This document shows, in pieces, positions 464 through 47,534 of a DNA stretch of 64,000 nt. The DNA is from Bacillota bacterium (GTDB taxonomy: Bacteria; Bacillota; Sulfobacillia; Fermentithermobacillales; Fermentithermobacillaceae). The position numbers were made by a program, and so were the translations under genes. Within the stretch, counting starts at the first letter, position 1, and each line of letters starts with the position of its first letter. The DNA is taken from positions 267,671 through 331,670 of the forward strand of contig JBMNKK010000004.1 in assembly GCA_050952125.1 (NCBI GenBank), read 5' to 3'. The notes beneath the pieces were generated by a model. That model did not search any database. It worked only from the letters and a program-made list of their open reading frames with translations, and was not told the DNA's origin.

Positions 464-540
464 TGGCAGGCCCGGAGGGATTTGAACCCCCAACCATCGG
501 ATTTGGAGTCCGCCGCTCTACCTATTGGAGCTACGGGCCT
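464..540 (-). tRNA. trnW: tRNA-Trp (anticodon CCA), CCA 3' end encoded
   Basis: Cloverleaf read by eye: AGGCCCGUAGCUCCAAUAGGUAGAGCGGCGGACUCCAAAUCCGAUGGUUGGGGGUUCAAAUCCCUCCGGGCCUGCCA. The anticodon loop is CU-CCA-AA, and the position between rpmG and secE is classic. Confidence 0.85.
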
Positions 541-549
541 GTACACAGT

Positions 550-711
550 CTACCTGGTTTCCCGGTGGGCCGTGTGAGTACGGCAGAACCGGCAATACTT
601 CCGAAGTTCAAGTCGCCCGGAATGAGACTTCTTGTTCTTCATTGTCGTGTAATTGCGCTGCTTGCATTCCTGGCAAGCCAGGGTCACGACCTCTGTAGTT
701 CCTTTAGCCAC
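550..711 (-). CDS. rpmG: 50S ribosomal protein L33
   Basis: Track ORF 550..747. The likely true start is the GTG preceded by a GGGAGGGG RBS, giving [28 protein letters not shown]...[14 protein letters not shown], the L33 zinc-ribbon CxxC...CxxC motif. Confidence 0.8.
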
Positions 712-830
712 GTGCTTCCCCTCCCATCCCGGAAAAAACACCTGCAAACGAGTCTAGCACAGGCTCTCGTGCAGTGTCAATTCAGCATATTCGCCTCCGG
801 GACCGCCGAAACTCTTGTCACAGATCAAAA

Positions 831-906
831 TGGAGCTCGCAACCAGAATCGAACTGGTGACCTCATCCTTACCAAGGATGCGCTCTGCCGACTGAGCTAT
901 GCGAGC
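831..906 (-). tRNA. trnT: tRNA-Thr (anticodon GGU)
   Basis: GCUCGCAUAGCUCAGUCGGCAGAGCGCAUCCUUGGUAAGGAUGAGGUCACCAGUUCGAUUCUGGUUGCGAGCUCCA read from the reverse strand. Anticodon loop CU-GGU-AA. Confidence 0.85.
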
Positions 907-921
907 ACCACAAAGATGGCG

Positions 922-999
<78 letters not shown>

Positions 1000-1030
1000 A
1001 CGATACACTGTTCAAGCTGTCAAATTTGGT

Positions 1031-1116
1031 TGGTGGAGAGGGCAGGATTTGAACCTGCGAAGGCGTCTGCCAGCAGATTTACAGTCTGTCCCCTTTGGCC
1101 ACTTGGGTACCTCTCC
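1031..1116 (-). tRNA. trnY: tRNA-Tyr (anticodon GUA), long variable arm
   Basis: GGAGAGGUACCCAAGUGGCCAAAGGGGACAGACUGUAAAUCUGCUGGCAGACGCCUUCGCAGGUUCAAAUCCUGCCCUCUCCACCA. Class II tRNA with anticodon GUA. Confidence 0.85.
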
Positions 1117-28562: not shown

Positions 28563-28676
<114 letters not shown>

Positions 28677-28739
28677 TTTTGTCCTTTCCACCCTCTTTGG
28701 GCGGACAACTTAAGAGAATTTGCGGAACTAACTTAAGCG

Positions 28740-31730
<2,991 letters not shown>

Positions 31731-31877
31731 AGGATTCTTCTTGAATCCTAAACTCGCGCTTGTTACTTCTCGCGACTTCTCTTAAGTTGTCAAGGACCAG
31801 TGATGGAGTCCTCTCCATCGTAGGACGTCAGTCCTCGAAGACCGAACAGCGTATTAGAGAACCTCAAGAGGTCTCCA

Positions 31878-33408
<1,531 letters not shown>

Positions 33409-33544
33409 CGTTACACCTTTTCCTCAAGGTCCGTAGAGTCGCTCGCGGTAACCGCGAGCCTTCTGGACTCAAAGGTTCTCTTACGCTGTTCAGTTTTCAA
33501 GGACCGACTTCCTTGGGCGCCCCCTCTCGCGGGGCGCAAGGGTT

Positions 33545-37163: not shown

Positions 37164-38093
37164 CTATGCCGGCACTAAGGGCGGCGGGTTCAACACCTCT
37201 ATCCTTGGCTTGAAGTTCAAGCGGTCGAGCATATCGTTGATCTCATCATCGGTGACGTCTTCAGGCTTCTTCCCGAGAAGACACACAATGAGACCTTCCA
37301 TAACGTTGGTGCCGAAAGACCGCCCCTCCATCTCGGGTGTTGTCGTGATGAGGGTGCTCACGCCGCGGGCCTTGAAATCTCTTATGTCGTCTTCTGTCAC
37401 GGTGTTCGTGATTATTGATTTGCCGGTCATGTCGTCAGGCATGTTCTTCGCTACATAGTGGAAATCGCCCGCTATGATGTCAGCTTCGTGATAGTAGCGA
37501 GCATACTTGGGATTTGCTTTCCGGTTTTCCTGCTTCTTGCCGGTAGGGTACAGCATTGTGAACGGAAGCCGTACCACGATAGGCGCTATCGTCCGGGCCA
37601 CTTTATCAAGGGCATCCAGAGAGCGAAGGGGAATGGGCAAGCCCAACGCGAAAATGAGGTCTCCCAATATGAGTTCGCAACCGGTCTCTCGCAGCGCTTC
37701 GGCCATGCCAAAACGGTCAGCCCCGCTAACCACAAGCACTTTCAGATCCTTGAACGGTACCTTGGCAGTATCATTGAGATACTTTATGACGCGACGCTCG
37801 AGAGTTCCCTTGAGCCTGCTTCCGTCGACGATGGGGGTCTTCTTTGCTGCCCTGGCTATCGGGAGCGCGTCCTTCAGCATGTACTTGGACCTGCCGCACG
37901 CAATCCAAAGGTCAATACCGCCCATGCCGAAAGCGTCTACCTTCCCGTCCAACTCGCGAATAAGCTCGATGGCTCGCGGAATGGACCCGTCGGTGCCGAT
38001 CCTCTCGACCAGTACTTGCTCGCCGAGGAACTCGCTTTCCGTCTTCTTGTTTCGTTTGGACGAACCAAGGCTCACACTGACTACGTGCTTCAT
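37164..38093 (-). CDS. Conserved hypothetical alpha/beta protein (MKHVVSVSLGSSKRNKK.. family), function unknown
   Basis: 309 aa with no TM segments. Motifs ..ERIGTDGS.., ..DGKVDAFGMGGIDLW.. and ..KKTPIVDGSRLK.. suggest a small-molecule-binding or isomerase-like fold. It is co-directional with, and 60 nt downstream of, the oxidoreductase gene. Confidence 0.4.
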   Translation of the reverse strand: MKHVVSVSLGSSKRNKKTESEFLGEQVLVERIGTDGSIPRAIELIRELDGKVDAFGMGGIDLWIACGRSKYMLKDALPIARAAKKTPIVDGSRLKGTLERRVIKYLNDTAKVPFKDLKVLVVSGADRFGMAEALRETGCELILGDLIFALGLPIPLRSLDALDKVARTIAPIVVRLPFTMLYPTGKKQENRKANPKYARYYHEADIIAGDFHYVAKNMPDDMTGKSIITNTVTEDDIRDFKARGVSTLITTTPEMEGRSFGTNVMEGLIVCLLGKKPEDVTDDEINDMLDRLNFKPRIEVLNPPPLVPA

Positions 38094-38105
38094 ATGTAAG
38101 ACCTC

Positions 38106-38636
38106 CTAGCCCTTCACGCTCTTAATTACTTTTCGAAGCGATTCAGGGTTCAGATAGACATCGCCTGACATCGGCGAACGCCCGATAACAATGGTGGCTA
38201 CGTCGGTATTTCTGTCAACCAAGTTCTTCAGGATGTCCAGCCGCTTGTCGGACCCTACAAAAATGACCTTGTCAAACCTCCGGATTTGAGCCATCAGACT
38301 CATGAGGTCATTGAGAACGTCGATTCCGCTCCGGTCGCGGACGAACGCCCAGCGTTCCTCGTCGGTCATGACCAAAGTGAAGTCAACGCCTTCCGCCTGA
38401 GCTACCTCTCTCACTTCATCGCAGTTTGAAATAGGGAAGCCGACCAGGGCTATTGAACCGCCCTTCCGCAGTTCTCCCAGGGTCTCGAGTCTCGAGATGA
38501 AGGTCCTGTCCAAGCCCATTTCCTGAGCGACGTCGGCTTGGGACTGGCCTTTGGCACGGCGGGCAAGTATGGCGTCAACCGCTTCGTCTATCTTCTGGCG
38601 ACTTATGACTTTGTCCCCGATCCTCACGAATTCCAC
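38106..38636 (-). CDS. Putative HTH transcriptional regulator with C-terminal DRTGG-like domain
   Basis: 176 aa with a predicted HTH (GQSQADVAQEMGLDRTFISRLE). The C-terminal ~110 aa (..VIFVGSDKRLDILKNLVDRNTDVATIVIGRSP..) resembles a DRTGG-type domain. It is the first gene of the three-gene operon. Confidence 0.4.
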   Translation of the reverse strand: MEFVRIGDKVISRQKIDEAVDAILARRAKGQSQADVAQEMGLDRTFISRLETLGELRKGGSIALVGFPISNCDEVREVAQAEGVDFTLVMTDEERWAFVRDRSGIDVLNDLMSLMAQIRRFDKVIFVGSDKRLDILKNLVDRNTDVATIVIGRSPMSGDVYLNPESLRKVIKSVKG

Positions 38637-38722
38637 GGGGCCACCACCTTGTGCACAACTCTGTGTACATCATAGCAAGGCGGTTCTTTGCGCGCAAGAG
38701 AAACCGGACAGGTGAGGTGGAC

Positions 38723-39691
38723 TTAAGCGAAAGGAGACAGAGGGAAACGCCTGAGCACGGATCGAAGCTTATCGTTGTCGGGCACCGAGTCATCGTGCAT
38801 CATGCCCTTCTTCAGCCCCTGCAAAGTGCGAGCGCCGCGCCTTGTGGTGAGCTCAAGGTCACGGGTGACTCTGGATAGCGCCGAAAGCCTGGCATCTTCT
38901 AGCGATTGGGTGAAACTCGCCCCCTTGGCAAGGTTCCTCCGGAGGCCATCAGCCAAGTAGAAGTGTGCCAGCCCGGTAAGAGGGTTGCCGCAAGCGCCCG
39001 TCGCGGTGACTCCGAATACCTCCGGCATCTTCAGCCGGTAGCCGATCTCCAAAGACGCTTTGAGGTCTTCCGTCTCATCTCTCACGCACTCTCGAAGAGT
39101 CTTGGGAGTGACCATGGCGTACTGAGACAGCGACCGGATAATCGCGTGCTCAATCGTGTGCGCCTCCTCCGCGTCGACCAGATCGCCCAGATTGCCCGAC
39201 AGCACAACCTCCTCGCCGCCGTGAGAAATGCCGTAGATGCTGACGCGTATGTCATGGCGCCCGCGAGCCTCGGTACTGCCTTGTAGAGCTCGCCACCCCG
39301 CCCCGTCGATTACCGGATAGGTGCTCCGGAGCTCGGCTAAGTCGATTACCTCCGGATTGGCCGCGAACAGGATCCCGTCCGCCGAGTGAAAGCCCCCTGC
39401 CTTCACCGTCGCTTTGCCGGTTACGCGCGCGAACAGCGCCTCGATGACTTTGAGTGACGGCGCCGCGATAACCTGTTGGGCCCACGACTCCTCAATGGCA
39501 ACCGCCGTCCCGACCGGGTAGAGTCCGGTGCTGCCCGAGAAAGGCAGAAGGAGCACCGGCGAACCGCGCCTTGCCCGGAACACGCGCTTCGTCCAGCTGT
39601 CGAGAAAGACGCCGGTTATCTCGCCGCCAACCCTCGGCATGGCGCCGTTCGCGACGGGAAGAACCGGGATGCTCATTCGATCTGCCGCCAC
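38723..39691 (-). CDS. Hypothetical protein (322 aa), possible Lon-N-like substrate-binding fold
   Basis: No TM segments and no recognisable catalytic motifs. The N-terminus ..IPVLPVANGAMPRVGGEITGVFLDSWTKRV.. loosely resembles Lon N-terminal domains. It overlaps the dusB start by 19 nt, so is co-transcribed with it. Confidence 0.35.
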   Translation of the reverse strand: MAADRMSIPVLPVANGAMPRVGGEITGVFLDSWTKRVFRARRGSPVLLLPFSGSTGLYPVGTAVAIEESWAQQVIAAPSLKVIEALFARVTGKATVKAGGFHSADGILFAANPEVIDLAELRSTYPVIDGAGWRALQGSTEARGRHDIRVSIYGISHGGEEVVLSGNLGDLVDAEEAHTIEHAIIRSLSQYAMVTPKTLRECVRDETEDLKASLEIGYRLKMPEVFGVTATGACGNPLTGLAHFYLADGLRRNLAKGASFTQSLEDARLSALSRVTRDLELTTRRGARTLQGLKKGMMHDDSVPDNDKLRSVLRRFPLSPFA

Positions 39692-41099: not shown

Positions 41100-42479
41100 T
41101 CAATCCCATTCTATGGCTCCGACCACTGAGTAACTACCCAATACATTCTCAATCGCCCGCTTAATGCTCTTCAATCCTTCGTCAGTACGCGATTCCGCCC
41201 GTAGCACCAATGCGGGTTGAGTGTTTGACGCCCGGAGGAGTCCCCATCCGTCCGGAAACAGAACTCTGGCGCCGTCGACCGTGATGACCTCATTGGTGCC
41301 TTGAAACACCTTCGTAAACTCCTCAACAATCCTGAACTTCTCCTCGTCCGGACAGTGAACCCTGATCTCGGGAGTCGACTTGTAGGCGGGAGCGTCTTCC
41401 AACATACGCGCCAGATCGTCATCCGAGTTTGTCAGTATGCGAAGGAGCCTGGCAGCAGCGTAAAGCGCGTCATCATAGCCATAGTGCTCGTCTCTGAAAA
41501 ACATGTGGCCGGACATCTCGCCGGTAAAGAGAGCCCCGGTCTCCTTCATCCGCGCCTTTATGAGAGAATGTCCGGTCCTGGTGAACTCCGGCTTTCCTCC
41601 CATGGCGCGCACGGCGTCCACAAGACTCTGTGAGCATTTCACCTCGATGAGTGCCAGAGCACCGGGATTCCTTTTCAGTATCTCCTGCCAAAACACGATC
41701 TGGAGCCGGTCGCCCCAGACCGGATTTCCATCTTTGCCGACAACGCCAATCCGGTCGGCATCTCCGTCGAAAGCTATGCCGACATCGGCGTCAGTTTCCT
41801 TCATCTTAGCTGCTAAAGCCCGTATGTTGTCCTTCTGCGTCGGATCGGGGTGGTGATTCGGAAAAGTGCCGTCAGGCTCGAAAAACATTTCTATGAAATC
41901 GGCACCGAGCCTTTGGAGCACCCTGCGGGCTACGGGCCCGGCAGCTCCGTTTCCGGCATCAACAACGGCGCGTATTTTGCGAGGGCCGAGCTTGATCCTC
42001 TTCGCGAAGTCATCTACGTAAGCATCAACGGGGTCGTCTACGGTGACCTTGCCGCTTCCCCATACGAACTCACCCGACTCAGCTATGCGGCGTATCTCTT
42101 GAATCCCTTCTCCGTACAGAGTGTCAGGCCCGTAGGCCAGTTTGAAACCGTTGAACTCAGGAGGATTATGGCTGCCGGTAACCATGACTCCGCCCTCAAC
42201 AGCGTAGTGGATGCGCGAAAAATACAGGACCGGCGTGGTGACCATTCCTACATCGACTACGTCGACTCCCGTCTCGAGGAGGGCGTCGATGAAAGCCTGG
42301 GAGTAAGCGTACGAGGACAGACGGCAATCGCGCCCCACAACGGCCCTGCTCAAGTTGTTTCTCTTAAGAAAAGTACCGTAGGCAAGTCCAAGAGTCCTAA
42401 CGGTGCCGAGAGTTAGGTCCTCGCCTACAAGGCCGCGCACGTCGTACTCACGGAATATCCTGGGGTTTATGTTGGCCAC
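41100..42479 (-). CDS. Phosphomannomutase/phosphoglucomutase (alpha-D-phosphohexomutase family)
   Basis: 459 aa with the active-site Ser loop TGSHNPPEFNG, the metal-binding DGDADR motif and a sugar-binding loop. The TGSHNP form favours PMM/PGM rather than GlmM. Confidence 0.8.
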   Translation of the reverse strand: MANINPRIFREYDVRGLVGEDLTLGTVRTLGLAYGTFLKRNNLSRAVVGRDCRLSSYAYSQAFIDALLETGVDVVDVGMVTTPVLYFSRIHYAVEGGVMVTGSHNPPEFNGFKLAYGPDTLYGEGIQEIRRIAESGEFVWGSGKVTVDDPVDAYVDDFAKRIKLGPRKIRAVVDAGNGAAGPVARRVLQRLGADFIEMFFEPDGTFPNHHPDPTQKDNIRALAAKMKETDADVGIAFDGDADRIGVVGKDGNPVWGDRLQIVFWQEILKRNPGALALIEVKCSQSLVDAVRAMGGKPEFTRTGHSLIKARMKETGALFTGEMSGHMFFRDEHYGYDDALYAAARLLRILTNSDDDLARMLEDAPAYKSTPEIRVHCPDEEKFRIVEEFTKVFQGTNEVITVDGARVLFPDGWGLLRASNTQPALVLRAESRTDEGLKSIKRAIENVLGSYSVVGAIEWD

Positions 42480-42595: not shown

Positions 42596-42853
42596 ATGAC
42601 TGACGTCAAGTGCAAAGTGCAATCCTGCCACTACTGGGGACACGGGGACGTATGTGAGGCCAACAGCATCATGGTCGACAACAACAAGAGGCTATCTTCG
42701 TTCGGAAAGATGGAGACGGGCTCCCTGGATATTACCGACAACACCGGAAGATCATCGTCAAACTCAGGCGAAACCGGGGGGAACCATGCTCACCGGTCAG
42801 AAGAGACCCTGTGCAAGACCTTCCGCCCCAAAGATACGAAGACCGGCGGCTAA
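42596..42853 (+). CDS. DUF1540-like small Cys-rich protein
   Basis: The start is re-assigned to the ATG with an AGGGGGTGAGG RBS, giving MTDVKCKVQSCHYWGHGDVCEANSIMVDNNKRLSSFGKMETGS... The VKCxVxxCxYW..C.A..I pattern is recalled as the DUF1540 signature, followed by a low-complexity S/G/T-rich tail. Confidence 0.5.
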   Translation: MTDVKCKVQSCHYWGHGDVCEANSIMVDNNKRLSSFGKMETGSLDITDNTGRSSSNSGETGGNHAHRSEETLCKTFRPKDTKTGG

Positions 42854-43047
42854 ACGTGTCTGGGAACAAGATCGCTGATTGAGGGGCGTTTTGGAGCGCC
42901 CCTCTTCCCTCTTTGATGCCGTGAGCTGACCGTGCACCCCGAGGAACCGGATAACCCCATATTGTGCTGAGCAGCCCTACTCCTCACGCTCGCCCCAGTG
43001 TGTATATGTTTTCTGACAACGGTATATATAAGCAGGATTCCGGCTCT

Positions 43048-43851
43048 ATGCAGCGAATTCAATATCTTCGAAAGGGGGTGAAAGCATTGTTTACAGACGG
43101 ACGAGCGTTTGATTTTCTCACTCTCCTCGTTGCAACGGGCCTCATGGGAATCTTCATGTACTTGGCCAGGACGGGCCTGAAAGTCAAAATCCGGCCCATA
43201 GCCGGGTTCGCAGCCATCGACGAAGCGGTAGGGCGAGCAGCTGAAATGGGCAAGCCAGTCCACTTCACGCCCGGTTTCGGCGGGTTGGTCGCGGCAACCT
43301 TCGCAGGACTCGAGGTATTGGGCTACGTCGCGAGACTGGCGGCCCAATATGATGTCCGGTTGGTCGTCACGGTATCCCAGGCAGAGACTTTCGCAGTCAC
43401 CGAGCAGGTAATGAGGCAGGCCTACCTTGAGGCGGGTAAACCCGACTCGTTCAAACCCGAGGATTGCCGCTTCATCTCCACCGACCAGTGGGCCTACGCC
43501 AGCGGCGTCATCGGCGTGCTCTACAGGGAGAAGGTAGCCTCCAACATCATGATCGGGCAGTTCGCGGCCGAAGCCCTCATCCTCGCTGAGGCGGGCAACA
43601 CCGTCGGCGCCATTCAGATCGCCGGTACCACCAACGCCTATCAGATCCCGTTCTTCGTTGTAGCCTGCGACTACGTCATCCTCGGAGACGAGATGTTCGC
43701 TGCAGGAGCCCACTTCACCAACAACAAGACACACTTGGGCAGCCTCCGCGGAGAAGACCTGGTCAAGGCCATCTGCCTCGCCATCATGGTCATCGGGGCA
43801 CTTGTTACAACGGCAGGTTCTGACGCGTTCAAAACTCTGATGAGCAAGTAA
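43048..43851 (+). CDS. Bitopic membrane protein with ~200-aa extracytoplasmic domain (module A1), function unknown
   Basis: Track ORF 42964..43851; the likely start is the ATG at 43048 (MQRIQYLRKG..) or the downstream TTG. It has an N-terminal TM (FLTLLVATGLMGIFMYLA), a soluble middle region and a C-terminal TM (LVKAICLAIMVIGALVTTAG). The stop is coupled (5 nt) to the next gene. Confidence 0.55.
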   Translation: MQRIQYLRKGVKALFTDGRAFDFLTLLVATGLMGIFMYLARTGLKVKIRPIAGFAAIDEAVGRAAEMGKPVHFTPGFGGLVAATFAGLEVLGYVARLAAQYDVRLVVTVSQAETFAVTEQVMRQAYLEAGKPDSFKPEDCRFISTDQWAYASGVIGVLYREKVASNIMIGQFAAEALILAEAGNTVGAIQIAGTTNAYQIPFFVVACDYVILGDEMFAAGAHFTNNKTHLGSLRGEDLVKAICLAIMVIGALVTTAGSDAFKTLMSK

Positions 43852-43855
43852 GGAG

Positions 43856-44485
43856 GTGAAGAGCATGTTCTTGAAAAGGACAGCCCCCGCTATCATCGCG
43901 TGCGTATGCGGCGTATCCGTCGTTATCGCATATTTCTTCAAGATCGCTCCGGTGCAGACATTTGCAACACATGTCCTTAAGTGGCAGTCGGTCATCGCAG
44001 TTTTTGCACTGGGGCTCGGCGGAGTCAACATTGTGAGACTCCACGGCAAGAACGTCCAGAGGGATCCCTCGAACTTCTACAGCATAGCGCTGCTTCTTAC
44101 CTTCGGCATAACGATCATCGTCGGACTGGCCTTAGGTCAGACCTCCGGTGCATACACATTCATATTCGACTACATTAACGTACCCACGGGCAGCGCGATT
44201 TTCTCGCTTCTGGCGTTCTACATCGGAACTGCAGCCTACAGGGCGTTCAGGGCTAAGAACGCCGAAGCAGCCATCCTGCTGCTCACAGGCTGCATCGTTA
44301 TGCTTGGGCGAGTGCCGATAGGCGCCAAGATATTGCCCTTCACCGCGCCGGCCACGGACTGGATCATGTCAGTCCTTAACGTGGGCGGACAGAGAGGAGT
44401 CATGATTGCCGGCGCAATCGGCTTCATCGCAGTGTCACTCAGGATCATAGTAGGACTCGAGCGCCGCGCCTACGGCGGCGAATAA
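43856..44485 (+). CDS. Polytopic membrane protein (~5-6 TM, module A2), function unknown
   Basis: 209 aa with hydrophobic segments throughout and no recognised transporter motifs. It is translationally coupled to its neighbours. Confidence 0.6.
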   Translation: MKSMFLKRTAPAIIACVCGVSVVIAYFFKIAPVQTFATHVLKWQSVIAVFALGLGGVNIVRLHGKNVQRDPSNFYSIALLLTFGITIIVGLALGQTSGAYTFIFDYINVPTGSAIFSLLAFYIGTAAYRAFRAKNAEAAILLLTGCIVMLGRVPIGAKILPFTAPATDWIMSVLNVGGQRGVMIAGAIGFIAVSLRIIVGLERRAYGGE

Positions 44486-44497
44486 GGGGGGAGATAG

Positions 44498-45343
44498 ATG
44501 AACGTTTTTGAGACTCTGCAGAACATCGACAAACGTGTGTTCTATCTCCTCATGGCTCTAGCCATCGCGGTCCCCACGATAAGCCCGATTGGACTCGCGG
44601 TAGATGTTACTCCCGCCGTACAGAAGGCCTTCGACTTCGTCGCGAGCCTTCCCAACGGGTCACGTGCGGTTATCGGGTTCGACTACGAGCCGGGCGACGA
44701 GATAGACCTGAACCCTCAGGCCAAGGCAATTCTCCATCAATTGGCCTCGAAGAATGTAAAGGTTGTGGCGATAGCATCCTTCCCTGCAGGCGCGATGTTC
44801 GCCGAGCAGTGCTTGGAGATCCTCGCCGAGTACGGCTATGAATACGGCAAGGACTACGTGAACTTGGGTCACTATGCAGGAGCCGAGGCGACGCTGGCTG
44901 CTTTCGCCAACAGCCCGAGCGCCATCTACTCCAAGGACTGGAGGGGCAACGACCTCAGCTCTCTGCCTCTCATGCAAGAGGTCAAGAGTATGAAGGACTT
45001 TTCCATGGCCATGACGCTGAACGACGGTCCTACCGGGGGGACGGGCACACACGCGTGGGTTAACCAGGCAGTAATGGCTCACGGTGTACCGCTGATTATG
45101 GGTGTAACCGGAGTCTTGGCGGCCTCAAACGAAACCTACGTGCAGTCCGGCCAGTGCAAAGGGATCCTGGCGGGACTTCGGGCCGCAGCCGAATACGAGA
45201 AACTCGTGGACAAGAAGGGTGATGGAACCGTCGGTATGGACGCACAGTCCATGGCCCACCTTCTTATCGTCATCTTCGTGGTTATGGGAAACGCGGCCAT
45301 GTTCCTCGCCAAGAACACCTCCAAGGGGGGTGCAGCTAGATGA
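44498..45343 (+). CDS. Bitopic membrane protein with ~200-aa extracytoplasmic domain (module B1; same architecture as 43048..43851)
   Basis: 281 aa with an N-terminal TM (VFYLLMALAIAVPTISPIGLAV), a soluble domain and a C-terminal TM (MAHLLIVIFVVMGNAAMFLA). The architecture duplicates module A1. Confidence 0.6.
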   Translation: MNVFETLQNIDKRVFYLLMALAIAVPTISPIGLAVDVTPAVQKAFDFVASLPNGSRAVIGFDYEPGDEIDLNPQAKAILHQLASKNVKVVAIASFPAGAMFAEQCLEILAEYGYEYGKDYVNLGHYAGAEATLAAFANSPSAIYSKDWRGNDLSSLPLMQEVKSMKDFSMAMTLNDGPTGGTGTHAWVNQAVMAHGVPLIMGVTGVLAASNETYVQSGQCKGILAGLRAAAEYEKLVDKKGDGTVGMDAQSMAHLLIVIFVVMGNAAMFLAKNTSKGGAAR

Positions 45344-45936
45344 AGATCTCCGGAGATATCGGGGTCTGGGTTGGAGCCATTGCCGCGCTGGCGATCTACT
45401 CCGTGCTGGTAAAGGACAACCCCTTCTACCGCCTGGTGGAGCACATCTTTGTCGGGGCCTCGGCAGGTATAGCGATAGTGACAGGGGTCCAGACATTCAA
45501 GAGCACCGCATGGGCTCCGATGGTTGAGGGCCAGGCCATTCTGATTGTCCCCATGCTCCTCGGCCTGCTCCTGTACGCGAGATATATACCTTCGATATCG
45601 CACTTGAACCGCATCCCGCTGTCGCTACTGATGGGGGCTGGCGCAGGCGTCGCCATGCGCGGAGCAGTCGAGAGCCAGATAGTAGGACAGCTACAGGCTA
45701 CGATGATCAAGCTCAACTCGTTTGACGCGCTGGTCATTTTCCTAGGTTCGCTCTTTTCACTGAGCTACTTCTTCCTAACGTACAAGCTTGACGGCGCTGC
45801 AGGATGGGCACCCAAACTGGGACGCTACTTCATGATGGCGGCGTTCGGCGCTGCTTTCGGAAACACTGTTATGGGAAGGGTATCGGCCGCCATCGGCCGC
45901 TTCCAGTTCATATTCCTGGAGTGGCTGGGCCTATAG
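45340..45936 (+). CDS. Polytopic membrane protein (~5-6 TM, module B2; same architecture as 43856..44485)
   Basis: 198 aa with an ATGA start/stop overlap with the preceding gene. Its size and TM layout are similar to module A2. Confidence 0.6.
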   Translation: MKISGDIGVWVGAIAALAIYSVLVKDNPFYRLVEHIFVGASAGIAIVTGVQTFKSTAWAPMVEGQAILIVPMLLGLLLYARYIPSISHLNRIPLSLLMGAGAGVAMRGAVESQIVGQLQATMIKLNSFDALVIFLGSLFSLSYFFLTYKLDGAAGWAPKLGRYFMMAAFGAAFGNTVMGRVSAAIGRFQFIFLEWLGL

Positions 45937-45997
45937 CCAACCTGTAAGCCAAGGCGAGACATGAAAGGGACCCTAACCGGGTCCCTTTCGATTCTCG

Positions 45998-46762
45998 CTA
46001 GACGTTCATTTCGTATATTATCCGCAACCCGTCGAGGACCAGGAAAGGATCGACCGTGTCGATGGTCTCGGACTCAGCCGCTATCATCTTCGCCAGATCT
46101 CCGGTAGCGATCACGTGGGGCTTCCCCCCGATTTCTTTGGCGGCGCGGCGTACGAGGCTGTCGACCATTCCCGCGAACCCGTAAACCATCCCCGATTGCA
46201 TGCTCTGGATGCTTGACCTGCCGATCGTCCTGCGGGGTTTGGAAAGCTCGATCCGGGGCAACTTCGCCGCCTTCATGAAGAGAGCGTCAAGTGAAGTGAG
46301 AATACCCGGCGCGACTATCCCGCCCAGGTACTCGCCTTTATTCGAAATGGCGTCGAGGGTGGTGGCGGTGCCGAAGTCAATGACCACGGCAGGAGTCCCG
46401 TACTTGTGAATAGCCGCCACAGAGTGGGCGATGTGGTCAGGGCCGACCTCTTTCGGGTTCTCATAGTTTATGTTGACTCCGGTCTTGGTACCGGGGCCCA
46501 CCACAAGGGGCTTTGTCTTGAGATGCTTTGACACCGTCTTCTCGAGTATGGGCGTGAGAGGCGGCACAACAGACGCGATAACGGCCCCGTTTACGTCTTC
46601 AGGATTCATCCCCGAATTGCGGATAAGCGATAAGAACGCCATGCCGTACTCATCTTCGGTTCGGCCGCTGCCGGTCGATATTCGCCAGTGTTCGAGCATT
46701 CTCTCTTTTTCGTAGATGCCCGCAGCAATGTGCGTATTTCCTGCGTCGATGGCAAGAAGCAT
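45998..46762 (-). CDS. coaX: Type III pantothenate kinase
   Basis: 254 aa starting MLLAIDAGNTHIAAGIY.. with ..VIDFGTATTLDAIS... It is an ASKHA-fold Bvg-accessory-factor family protein. Confidence 0.9.
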   Translation of the reverse strand: MLLAIDAGNTHIAAGIYEKERMLEHWRISTGSGRTEDEYGMAFLSLIRNSGMNPEDVNGAVIASVVPPLTPILEKTVSKHLKTKPLVVGPGTKTGVNINYENPKEVGPDHIAHSVAAIHKYGTPAVVIDFGTATTLDAISNKGEYLGGIVAPGILTSLDALFMKAAKLPRIELSKPRRTIGRSSIQSMQSGMVYGFAGMVDSLVRRAAKEIGGKPHVIATGDLAKMIAAESETIDTVDPFLVLDGLRIIYEMNV

Positions 46763-46790: not shown

Positions 46791-47534
46791 CTAGTCGATA
46801 TGCCTGCTAACCGCCCGGTACACGAGACCTGTAAGGATCATGGCCATTACCGCTTCGGGGATGCCATTCACCACAGCTATACCCCAGGCCACCTCTGCCG
46901 GTAGAAAACCGAAAGCCGCGATAAGCCCCAAAACAAGCACTGTGTTGGTTAGGCTTCCGGCCGCCGCGGCCAACGCAGGCCCATGCCCGGAGCGCTTCTG
47001 GATGACGTATATGAGAGCGGCTGCGAGGCCTCCGGCTGCTATCGCCAGAGCATAGCGCAGGAGTGGGGCCAGGCTTTCAAGGAAAGTAAACCCGGTGACC
47101 CCGAGAAGGAGCCCGGAAGCCGCCACCAATGCCACTTGCCCGGATCTCCCCCGGACTAGGCGGAAGACGTAGTAGGCAACAACACCTACCAAGATTCGAG
47201 GAACGACCGCTATCAATGGATTGGAGAAAATGAGCTTATCCATTGGGTTCACCGACGTCTGTGCCTGCCACATGCTGAATGCACCGAACATGGCTCCCAC
47301 CGCCCCGCCTATGACCGGCCCTTGCAGAACACCTGCGATTATCGTGGGGATGTGCATAATGGTGATGGATACCGGGGGGATCTGGATGAACCCGATAGGT
47401 GTGGAACCGAGGACAATCGTGATGGCTCCGAGAACTCCCGCAAAAGCGATCTGACGCGCTGAAAACCTAGTGTTTTGGCGCAAAGTCGCGCACCTCCGTT
47501 CCGGCTCCTCTCTCAAGGATGCCGTTCGTGTCAC
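46791..47534 (-). CDS. ECF-type transporter S component (substrate-specific), possibly pantothenate (PanT-like) given coaX adjacency
   Basis: About 6 TM segments with the small Gly/Ala-rich helices typical of ECF S-components. The real start is probably downstream of the track start, because the N-terminal 35 aa are non-hydrophobic and Arg-rich. It lies 29 nt upstream of, and co-directional with, coaX. Confidence 0.5.
   Translation of the reverse strand: MTRTASLREEPERRCATLRQNTRFSARQIAFAGVLGAITIVLGSTPIGFIQIPPVSITIMHIPTIIAGVLQGPVIGGAVGAMFGAFSMWQAQTSVNPMDKLIFSNPLIAVVPRILVGVVAYYVFRLVRGRSGQVALVAASGLLLGVTGFTFLESLAPLLRYALAIAAGGLAAALIYVIQKRSGHGPALAAAAGSLTNTVLVLGLIAAFGFLPAEVAWGIAVVNGIPEAVMAMILTGLVYRAVSRHID

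Follow-up and report, generated by a model that had tools for sequence, protein, structure and literature searches.

The window that we analyzed (the whole 64-kb stretch of DNA) contains five co-directional ORFs at positions 42596-45936 in its ORF listing, as the earlier note on this DNA had described. An independent gene caller reported the same five on identical metagenome contigs, with products of 85, 254, 206, 281, and 198 aa. The flanking genes were confirmed as housekeeping genes, encoding a PGM/PMM-family protein on one side and a type III pantothenate kinase (coaX) on the other. The five genes had previously been taken as one locus. We instead describe them as 1 + 4 genes, because a terminator-like hairpin (42883-42914, + strand) separates the first gene from the remaining four. 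This hairpin was read directly from the sequence and has a G+C-rich stem (GGGGCG-loop-CGCCCC) followed by a T-rich tail, TCTTCCCTCTTT. Its function is putative, since a consensus scan did not list it.

The first gene (42596-42853, + strand) has its own ribosome-binding site (RBS) and encodes a small, Cys-rich protein of 85 aa that belongs to DUF1540, as had been proposed from its sequence (PF07561; 51.4 bits against a gathering score of 22.1 bits, E 1.2e-13). The protein contains CKVQSCHYWGHGDVC and has cysteines at positions 6, 11, 20, and 74; a four-Cys signature of the family has been described (PMC7677010). DUF1540 is an endospore-associated family, and is carried by the exosporium protein CdeA of C. 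difficile (PMC2955703, PMC7677010). A link between this gene and the downstream module had been suggested but is not supported: the gene has a separate putative terminator, and no DUF1540 homologue was found near the cassette in any of 80 related loci. The DUF1540 gene adjoins the module without being part of it and is a spore-associated bystander.

The four-gene unit, hereafter the cassette, consists of A1 (43087-43851), A2 (43865-44485), B1 (44498-45343), and B2 (45340-45936), all on the + strand, and the genes are real. A1 starts at the TTG at 43087 (RBS AAAGGGGGTG), 6 nt after a Shine-Dalgarno site, AAAGGGGGTGA, at 43071-43081. The Pfam match of A1 begins at this codon and the gene caller gave the same 254 aa on an identical contig; an earlier proposed start at 42964 was not upheld. 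A2 starts at ATG 43865 behind GGAGGTG, and the A1/A2 gap is therefore 13 nt. The smaller gap reported previously (given as 5 nt; 4 nt on recount) had its origin in a GTG within the A2 RBS (position 43856), while the reported A2/B1 gap of 12 nt and the 4-nt overlap of B1 and B2 (ATGA) both stand. The cassette genes have Shine-Dalgarno sites (for B2, RBS AAGGGGGGTG), and the cassette is followed by a hairpin read from the sequence, AAAGGGACCC-TAACC-GGGTCCCTTT (45964-45988, no strand assigned), which lies where B2 and coaX converge, at an inverted repeat (I1) with 20-nt arms (45954-45998). This hairpin is probably a bidirectional terminator. A promoter scan returned no sigma-70-like site, and Rfam gave no riboswitch, and thus no ligand clue, upstream of the present cassette or of eight related cassettes.

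Searches of Pfam and NCBIfam with all five proteins matched only DUF1540 and DUF6754. The latter match is A1, which is a full-length member of DUF6754 (PF20539; 277.4 bits against a gathering score of 27 bits, E 1.2e-82, profile positions 5-255 of 257). All of the 120 A1 homologues among the matches listed also carry this domain. The Pfam entry is a catalogue entry without a function, its coverage does not extend to the other three cassette proteins or to the operon, and our literature search for DUF6754 and PF20539 found no mention of either. A1 is the most conserved subunit (mean pairwise identity 47.6%), and many of its 24 invariant columns are charged, including the membrane-proximal D224. 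B1 is the least conserved (33.4%), its domain being the most variable, and its family comprises about 4,400 clusters at 50% identity; no match to it was found in Pfam, NCBIfam, or the PDB. The same three sources contained no relative of A2 (589 homologous clusters) or of B2, and Pfam scans of individual B2 members were also empty. For A2, such per-member scans gave a weak match to TMD0_ABC (PF24357) in 18 of 29 relatives, with a best E of 0.006 that does not reach the cut-off, and this possible lead is unproven. When profiles of all four families were searched against PDB sequences, no significant match emerged.

In confident AF2 models, A1 and B1 have a common plan, in which a six-stranded Rossmann-like alpha/beta domain is placed between two transmembrane (TM) helices (residues 7-28 and 214-242 in A1; 12-28 and 242-275 in the 281-aa B1). 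The second TM helix of B1 carries a conserved GMDAQSxAH...GN motif, with the conserved polar residues D248, S251, H254, and N265 at its top; H254 is the only invariant His across the four proteins. A2 (206 aa) has a conserved AAYRAFRAR loop and B2 (198 aa) a conserved YKDNPxY..AEH motif, in which E34 is invariant. By hydropathy each has six hydrophobic segments, although the six-TM model of B2 includes Gly-rich, weakly hydrophobic ones. Models and hydropathy thus agree with the earlier description of two bitopic and two ~200-aa polytopic proteins, and narrow its estimate of 5-6 TM helices per polytopic protein to six hydrophobic segments each.

The distribution of Lys and Arg (K+R) suggests that the A1/A2 and B1/B2 pairs are oppositely oriented in the membrane. 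Specifically, the K+R bias agreed with the assigned topology in 29/29 A2, 28/30 B2, 31/31 B1, and 23/26 A1 sequences, and across the families it was opposite in A1 vs. B1 and in A2 vs. B2, as predicted for an antiparallel pair. The second TM helix of A1 shows a reversed bias (1.8 K+R in the C-terminal tail vs. 0.5 at the inner flank). By the positive-inside rule and a few fusion proteins, A2 is predicted to be N-in and C-in, B2 N-out and C-out, the A1 domain cytoplasmic, and the B1 domain extracytoplasmic. Both ~200-aa domains had been considered external in the earlier note; this remains the prediction for B1, but for A1 charge bias and fusions point to the cytoplasm.

It had also been proposed that the cassette is a two-gene module duplicated in tandem, which is partly supported. 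A1 and B1 have a common plan, and in hhalign the two were collinear over 219 columns with secondary-structure elements in the same order, the similarity being weak (P 7.5e-4 to 3e-3, probability 17-25%) and the probability not raised by adding the AF2 secondary structure. A2 and B2 (P 0.019) did no better than cross-family controls, and BLASTP found no match between A1 and B1 or between A2 and B2. If a duplication produced the two halves, it is ancient and not a simple tandem repeat, and the halves now appear to face opposite ways. Oppositely oriented paralogue pairs occur in membrane transport, e.g., paired SMR/EmrE-like genes, Fluc/CrcB pairs, and the inverted repeats of larger transporters. 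The cassette resembles these in that A1 and B1 are encoded in a single operon and have a common plan and opposite K+R bias, the last seen also in A2 and B2. It differs from them in the weak (A1/B1) or undetectable (A2/B2) homology between its halves, and in that each half consists of two polypeptides and includes a ~190-aa soluble domain. To the best of our knowledge, no antiparallel pair with such halves is known.

HMMs of the four cassette families each gave one match in the window, in order. The same order, A1-A2-B1-B2, was found in 61 of 80 related loci, the remainder having two or three cassettes (eight loci) or an incomplete pattern, in many cases at the end of a contig. Overall, 78 complete cassettes were recovered from Bacillota, Armatimonadota, Cloacimonadota, Latescibacterota, Zixibacteria, Planctomycetota, Bathyarchaeia, and others. 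Because the order is conserved in these 78 cassettes from unrelated phyla, it is not due to chance, and the paired architecture, whose loss from related loci would have counted against the earlier note, is retained. At least 582 occurrences of the cassette were counted across species-representative genomes, which span more than 12 phyla and include some archaea; it is common both in diderm phyla that do not sporulate and in archaea, and its carriers are mostly anaerobes. The recurrence of the four-gene order across many phyla indicates that it is not the lineage-specific insertion it had been thought to be. Signs of mobility were also absent (flat composition, no flanking direct repeats, no plasmid or phage match). 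Some genomes have two or three diverged tandem copies in which all four genes were duplicated together, and these copies are old (50-64% identity in A1 and 37-56% in B1). The region 43087-45936 is a single operon for four integral membrane proteins, which are inherited as a fixed set and also duplicated as one. The presence of several diverged copies in one genome is typical of transporter paralogues.

In about a quarter of the related loci (19-24 of 80), the cassette is extended by a GlmL-like actin-fold ATPase and three further uncharacterized proteins: a ~374-aa protein that combines barrel-sandwich, Rossmann, and KOW-like parts, and two small membrane proteins. In Marinimicrobia the extended cluster is a tight seven-gene operon among housekeeping genes, adjoining cdsA. 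HMMs of the four added proteins had no match in a six-frame translation of the 64-kb window. The linked ATPase matches the GlmL/MutL family of B12-dependent mutase accessories (PF13941, TIGR01319) at E 1e-127 for PF13941 and has the N-terminal DxGSTxTK motif, but it falls far under the cut-offs of the NCBIfam equivalogs (227 vs. 475 bits), has an extra ~130 aa at the C-terminus, and accompanies membrane proteins rather than mutase genes. Our literature search returned nothing for PF13941 and nothing relevant for GlmL or ASKHA. The neighborhoods of stand-alone cassettes are heterogeneous; genes for M20, S9, and MlrC peptidases and for amidohydrolases adjoin some of them.

Homologues from other lineages carry additional domains. 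A1 homologues of diderms have a signal peptide and N-terminal extensions, one with a BamB-like beta-propeller; Pfam scans of the long extensions gave this one clear BamB/PQQ propeller and otherwise sub-threshold Ig/FN3 hints. One B1 homologue has a CARDB insertion, and some B2 homologues have a soluble insert of ~165 aa in the TM2-TM3 loop, predicted to lie outside, with no clear Pfam match. The signal-peptide and CARDB fusions, together with this insert, favor the opposite orientations predicted for the two halves. The Bacillota versions have neither the extracytoplasmic decorations nor the ATPase.

We detected no homology of any cassette protein to a known transporter, channel, or pump, and Pfam and NCBIfam agreed with the earlier judgment that the set is uncharacterized and contains no ATPase, Rnf/Nqr, SpoVA, or transporter family. 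No Rnf/Nqr subunit (RnfA/D/E/G, NqrB-E) was matched in Pfam or NCBIfam, and there were no conserved Cys motifs. Metal or redox handling, also suggested before, is not supported: no conserved Cys or cofactor motif was seen in the four proteins. The ABC, ECF, and TRAP importers are alike in concept, with an external alpha/beta binding domain, polytopic subunits, several diverged copies per genome, and, as in some cassette loci, a cytoplasmic ATPase partner. Nevertheless, the operon has no ATPase and no significant match to ABC or ECF families, and the cassette lacks an ABC ATPase and shows no homology to either the permeases or the binding proteins of such importers. Its partner ATPase has the actin fold (PF13941) and not the P-loop fold of ABC ATPases, and the only ABC resemblance is the sub-threshold one in A2. 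KTN/RCK (TrkA-N) domains of K+ transporters showed no sequence similarity or Pfam match. A1 and B1 differ from them in being tied to the membrane at both ends, with B1 predicted to be external, and resemble them no better than SDRs, SIS domains, or GT-B halves. SpoVAC/AD/AE were not matched, and the cassette occurs in diderm phyla and Bathyarchaeia. A role in defense was rejected because PADLOC models found nothing meaningful (one spurious Cas10_Id hit, 14.5 bits).

Since no part matches a studied family, the cassette is probably an undescribed membrane machine, and our best guess at its type is a transporter. The four proteins may form a hetero-oligomeric transporter or translocase, a tentative reading that we favor while holding it with less than even confidence; their physical association is deduced from gene linkage. 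The two six-TM subunits (A2 and B2) would form the pathway, B1 would be a tethered external domain for binding and specificity, and A1 would provide a cytoplasmic ligand- or nucleotide-binding domain for gating or coupling. In Bacillota, this organism among them, the cassette would work alone, so that transport would be ion-gradient-driven or facilitated. In many other phyla, where the cassette is co-transcribed with the GlmL-like ATPase, the ~374-aa protein, and the two small membrane proteins, these partners could energize or regulate it. As for the substrate, the adjoining genes for peptidases and amidohydrolases are a weak hint of peptides or amino acids. A bolder version is speculative and rather unlikely to hold in full: a hitherto unrecognized, ancient class of membrane translocation machine, built from two oppositely oriented halves (each bitopic-Rossmann plus six-TM) with a pseudo-symmetric pathway and alpha/beta domains on both faces, and driven in its full eight-gene form by the actin-fold (ASKHA, GlmL-like) ATPase. 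We know of no transporter in which an actin-fold ATPase couples energy.

A surface or envelope machine would be an equally good fit to the decorations (Ig, FN3, CARDB, and beta-propeller). Such a machine might export, anchor, or remodel a surface polymer, serve adhesion or motility, or act as a scaffold for cell shape or division, with the actin-fold ATPase at work on the cytoplasmic face while the external domains, with their decorations, touch the wall or outer layers. The ASKHA/actin fold also includes the cytoskeletal MreB, FtsA, and PilM, and the Marinimicrobia operon beside cdsA, the decorations on A1, the CARDB repeats in B1, and the soluble insert of B2 are in keeping with this reading. 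It has to accommodate, however, the presence of the cassette in the very unlike envelopes of monoderms, diderms, and archaea, two or three diverged copies per genome, which would be unusual for core envelope machinery, and Bacillota versions without decorations or ATPase. The GT-B resemblance is generic Rossmann similarity. We give this reading a modest, minority share of the probability.

An ion-translocating energy-converting or redox complex, which takes up the earlier metal- or redox-handling idea and would bind NAD(P), flavin, or another cofactor in its Rossmann-like domains and move H+ or Na+ with its polytopic subunits, is improbable. In its favor are invariant membrane-proximal acidic or polar residues (E34 in B2; D248, H254, and N265 in B1; D224 in A1) and mostly anaerobic carriers. 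Against it, the four proteins lack both a conserved Cys, Fe-S, or haem motif and a canonical GxGxxG motif. Rnf, Nqr, Mrp, complex I, and decarboxylase families were not matched, and conserved redox partner genes were not found nearby; the predicted location of one Rossmann-like domain is extracellular, and nucleotides are unavailable there. We also consider it quite doubtful that the cassette is a transmembrane sensor or signaling assembly in which external B1 senses a ligand and cytoplasmic A1 relays it. Alpha/beta domains on both membrane faces, the external one variable and the internal one conserved, would suit such a role, but the neighborhood has no conserved kinase, cyclase, HTH, or receiver partner, twelve polytopic TM helices exceed a sensor's needs, and the 24 invariant columns of A1 look more like a catalytic or binding site. 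Finally, a five-gene sporulation or spore-membrane locus, such as the spore membrane assembly once proposed, is suggested by the endospore association of DUF1540 and CdeA (PMC2955703, PMC7677010) and by the adjacent, co-directional genes here, but is hardly credible given the intervening hairpin, the absence of DUF1540 from all 80 related loci, and above all a distribution rich in non-sporulating phyla and archaea, which largely refutes it.

The module is carried in thousands of protein clusters from the dominant organisms of anaerobic digesters, sediments, and the deep ocean, among them Cloacimonadota, Marinimicrobia, Latescibacterota, Zixibacteria, Armatimonadota, uncultured Bacillota, and Bathyarchaeia, and just one of its four proteins has a DUF number. 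If it is a transporter, the family is absent from every metabolic reconstruction of these lineages; true coupling to an actin-fold ATPase, or inverted two-protein halves, would be a new architecture for membrane biology. The vague label of hypothetical membrane proteins can now be replaced with testable predictions about subunits, opposite topologies, an outward domain, invariant residues, and a culturable host. Among the carriers, Symbiobacterium (S. thermophilum) is culturable and has the full cluster.

The four genes A1-A2-B1-B2 (43087-45936, plus strand) form a self-contained, strongly conserved and co-inherited cassette of integral membrane proteins, two bitopic (A1, B1) and two with six predicted TM helices (A2, B2), without a characterised relative. 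The cassette belongs to a run of five plus-strand ORFs between a PGM/PMM-family gene on the left (41100-42479, minus strand) and coaX for type III pantothenate kinase on the right (45998-46762, minus strand). Their products of 85, 254, 206, 281 and 198 aa were called identically by an independent gene caller on identical metagenome contigs. The first ORF is a DUF1540 gene (42596-42853, plus strand; PF07561, E = 1.2e-13; motif CKVQSCHYWGHGDVC...C), and 3' of it (42883-42914, plus strand) lies a hairpin that is rich in G+C and ends in a T-rich tail. A1 (43087-43851, plus strand) starts at a TTG six bases past AAAGGGGGTG, which coincides exactly with the beginning of its Pfam match. A2 (43865-44485, plus strand) starts at an ATG, with GGAGGTG directly after the A1 stop, and B1 at ATG 44498 (plus strand), preceded by GGGGGGAG. 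B2 (plus strand) starts within an ATGA overlap with B1 at 45340-45343 and stops at 45936; a 10-bp hairpin (45964-45988) lies between it and the convergent coaX. The A1/A2 gap is 13 nt and the A2/B1 gap 12 nt. The shorter first gap of the earlier note (5 nt; 4 nt on recount) arose because a GTG inside the ribosome-binding site was taken as the start. Its five-gene locus stands as five co-directional ORFs, but the real unit is the last four, with the DUF1540 gene outside. Base composition is flat over the locus region, no direct repeats flank it, and A1 had no tblastn match in plasmid and phage collections.

A1 belongs to DUF6754 (PF20539, E = 1.2e-82) and matches it over the full length. No match was obtained for A2, B1 or B2 in Pfam and NCBIfam or for any of the four proteins in PADLOC, and profiles of the four families found none of the solved structures by sequence. 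When 29-30 members per polytopic family were scanned singly, a sub-threshold TMD0_ABC resemblance appeared in 18/29 A2 sequences (best E = 0.006), and B2 gave no match. Our literature search found no mention of DUF6754 or PF20539.

Among the candidates scored, the A1 family comprises 3,927 clusters at 90% identity, and when each species was represented by a single genome, scanning confirmed the cassette at at least 582 places. Searched among 1.84 billion representatives, the B1 profile retrieved 5,500 clusters (50% identity) with E up to 1e-3, 4,391 of them with E up to 1e-10. The closest relatives among the listed matches come from Candidatus Fermentithermobacillaceae (Bacillota), with 75-79% identity in A1. 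Bacillota hosts also include Symbiobacterium, other bacterial hosts are Armatimonadota, Cloacimonadota, Latescibacterota, Zixibacteria, WOR-3, Marinimicrobia, Ignavibacteria, Planctomycetota, Coatesbacteria and Eisenbacteria, and the archaeal hosts are Bathyarchaeia. Neighbourhoods were compared in 80 loci kept from the species-representative scan. These yielded homologues of each of the four proteins, whose genes invariably share one direction and follow the order A1-A2-B1-B2. Exactly one complete cassette is present in 61 of the 80; two or three occur in L007, L040, L041, L049, L051, L072, L073 and L074, where a copy may run off the contig end (in L041 the second one is a fragment), and the rest show a partial pattern, many at a contig end. 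In none of the 80 loci does the DUF1540 gene, PGM or coaX adjoin the cassette. Because of this absence and the spread across bacterial phyla and Bathyarchaeia, the cassette is neither lineage-specific nor tied to the DUF1540 gene, as had been proposed.

AlphaFold2 modelling covered A1 (pLDDT 90.7, pTM 0.84) and B1 (pLDDT 89.1, pTM 0.83), each singly. The models are confident and alike, with an N-terminal TM helix, a six-stranded alpha/beta domain of alternating helix and strand, and a long C-terminal TM helix in identical element order. BLASTP found no similarity between the cassette halves (A1 vs B1, A2 vs B2). In profile-profile comparison, A1 vs B1 gave P = 7.5e-4 to 3e-3 (probability 17-25%), and a low-stringency alignment of 219 columns is collinear from the first to the last TM helix. 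It pairs the beta1 motifs PVHFTPG (A1) and FDYEPG (B1), as well as the segments before the last helix, GEELFAAGAY...QD..K (A1) and GAAEYEKL...GMDAQS (B1). A2 vs B2 gave P = 0.019, which is not above cross-family controls. On the profile-profile evidence A1 and B1 probably arose by a very old gene duplication, and the likeness of A2 and B2 is limited to size and TM count; the suggested duplication of a two-gene module would have to be ancient.

Membrane topology was called from family-wide Lys+Arg counts adjoining the membrane. A2 is predicted to be N-in (29/29 sequences agree) and B2 N-out (28/30), B1 to have both tails inside and its domain outside (31/31), and A1 to have its domain inside (23/26), with the caveat that the charge bias of the second A1 TM helix is opposite to the predicted orientation. 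The A1 homologues of diderm phyla begin with a cleavable-looking signal peptide, and 110-750 aa of N-terminal extension precede their first TM helix. These extensions share a recurring motif, D.PND.GGS..(L/V)TW; one (L028) contains a BamB/PQQ beta-propeller (E = 1.7e-24), and others show weak Ig/FN3 matches. In one B1 homologue the alpha/beta domain is interrupted by CARDB repeats (PF07705, 29.2 bits vs a cut-off of 22.7), and another has an RRDDRRRH cluster followed by an extra TM helix. Some B2 homologues (L026:10479-11567, L029:10424-11674, L034:10397-11635) bear a ~165-aa soluble insert between TM2 and TM3, in a loop predicted to lie outside. Given the Lys+Arg bias and these agreeing independent fusions, the two halves appear to be mutually inverted in the membrane, and we infer a cytoplasmic A1 domain and an external B1 domain. 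Of the external domains earlier assigned to both bitopic proteins, that of B1 is retained, whereas bias and fusions point to the inside for A1.

Several variants were also recorded. Cloacimonadota A1 homologues of 950-1011 aa (L039:5835-8759, L044, L045, L056, L057, L072, L074) have a signal peptide and a ~700-aa N-terminal region with no significant Pfam match and weak fn3/Big_8 hints. Among the B1 variants P0449 (838 aa), P0366 (630 aa), P0465 and P0450, one has a CARDB insert, one a whole-domain tandem duplication, and two a helical insert of 100-260 aa at the same position. By eye, the B2 insert is beta-sandwich- or carbohydrate-binding-like; its sole Pfam hint is Lyase_N (E = 0.007).

Across 78 complete cassettes, mean pairwise identity is highest in A1 (47.6%), lowest in B1 (33.4%), and ~37% in A2 and B2. 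In A1, 24 alignment columns are invariant, many with a charged residue (E46, R50, E53, N153, E162, E168, D195, E202, D224). Invariant B1 residues are concentrated where the last TM helix begins, in GMDAQSxAH...GN; the YKDNPxY..AEH motif of B2 contains an invariant Glu, and A2 has AAYRAFRAR in a predicted cytoplasmic loop. Tandem cassettes of one genome share 50-64% identity in A1 and 37-56% in B1, with all four genes duplicated together, and by these sequence distances are old duplicates. Among uncultured Bacillota, single genomes contain two or three copies at dispersed sites.

Four further families recur beside the cassette among the 80 loci: a GlmL/MutL-like ASKHA ATPase of ~600 aa (19-20 loci; PF13941, E = 1e-127), which scores far below the NCBIfam GlmL cut-offs; N374 (~374 aa, 22-24 loci), without a Pfam family, with barrel-sandwich-like N-terminal parts, a GG-rich centre and a KOW-like C-terminus (weak Spt5/NusG match); and two small membrane-associated proteins, N132 (~130 aa, 29 loci) and N157 (~157 aa, 22 loci; hydrophobic hairpin). 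All are without described function in the cassette setting. The order N157-N132-ATPase-N374-A1-A2-B1-B2 is typical of Latescibacterota, Planctomycetota and Eisenbacteria; Symbiobacterium has N157-A1-A2-B1-B2-ATPase-N374-N132, and Marinimicrobia one tight seven-gene operon amid housekeeping genes. The cluster extended by these families, present in many phyla, is seen in L011, L017, L021, L025, L050, L054, L070, L075-L077, L079 and L092 (for example L092:5055-11695). Bathyarchaeia MAGs with the cassette (L066, L062, L078, L006) may reflect inter-domain transfer or mis-binning; in L066 it is accompanied by the GlmL-like ATPase and by N374, in a bacterial-like order (A1 identity 41-50%). None of the four families is encoded within the 64-kb window, and the complete genome of Ca. 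Fermentithermobacillus carboniphilus has two cassettes, both stand-alone. Neighbours of stand-alone cassettes vary, with peptidases and amidohydrolases recurring (M20, S9, MlrC). No riboswitch lies upstream of any cassette examined. On a Fermentithermobacillus-like contig, a tandem glycine riboswitch (L081:16346-16572) upstream of gcvT-gcvH-gcvP, a few kb from a second DUF6754 cassette, controls the glycine-cleavage genes and not the cassette.

We infer that the four proteins assemble together, and a transporter or translocase is, tentatively, our best guess. The pathway would be formed by A2 and B2, with B1 as a tethered, fast-evolving external specificity domain and A1 as a conserved cytoplasmic domain for binding, gating or coupling; in other phyla the optional actin-fold ATPase module may energise or regulate the complex. 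Diverged copies per genome, the variable-outside/conserved-inside pattern and the peptidase neighbours fit such a role. An envelope or surface machine is unlikely but kept as a serious rival because the cassette proteins have no homology to known transporters and their decorations resemble those of surface proteins. Less likely than either are a redox or ion-pumping complex, which we regard as improbable, and a sensor, more improbable still. DUF1540 is an endospore-associated family, present in the C. difficile exosporium protein CdeA (PMC2955703, PMC7677010), but a five-gene sporulation locus including this gene is essentially excluded.

Elsewhere in the window, the gene immediately upstream of coaX encodes an ECF-transporter S component (46791-47534, minus strand; PF12822 on the identical contig L084), which suggests a pantothenate-salvage pair. 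Three consecutive genes (37164-39691, minus strand; 309, 176 and ~317-322 aa) are flanked by a shikimate-dehydrogenase-like gene and dus; on the identical contig none of them is assigned a Pfam family. The window also holds a complete rRNA operon (5S, 23S, 16S; 28563-33414, minus strand) and four clustered tRNA genes (Trp, Thr, Met, Tyr; 464-1116, minus strand). At ~49.5-53 kb, by correspondence with L084:15704-18731, amidohydrolase and aromatic/histidine ammonia-lyase genes lie downstream of a formate-tetrahydrofolate ligase gene and resemble a set for histidine degradation that would feed one-carbon metabolism.
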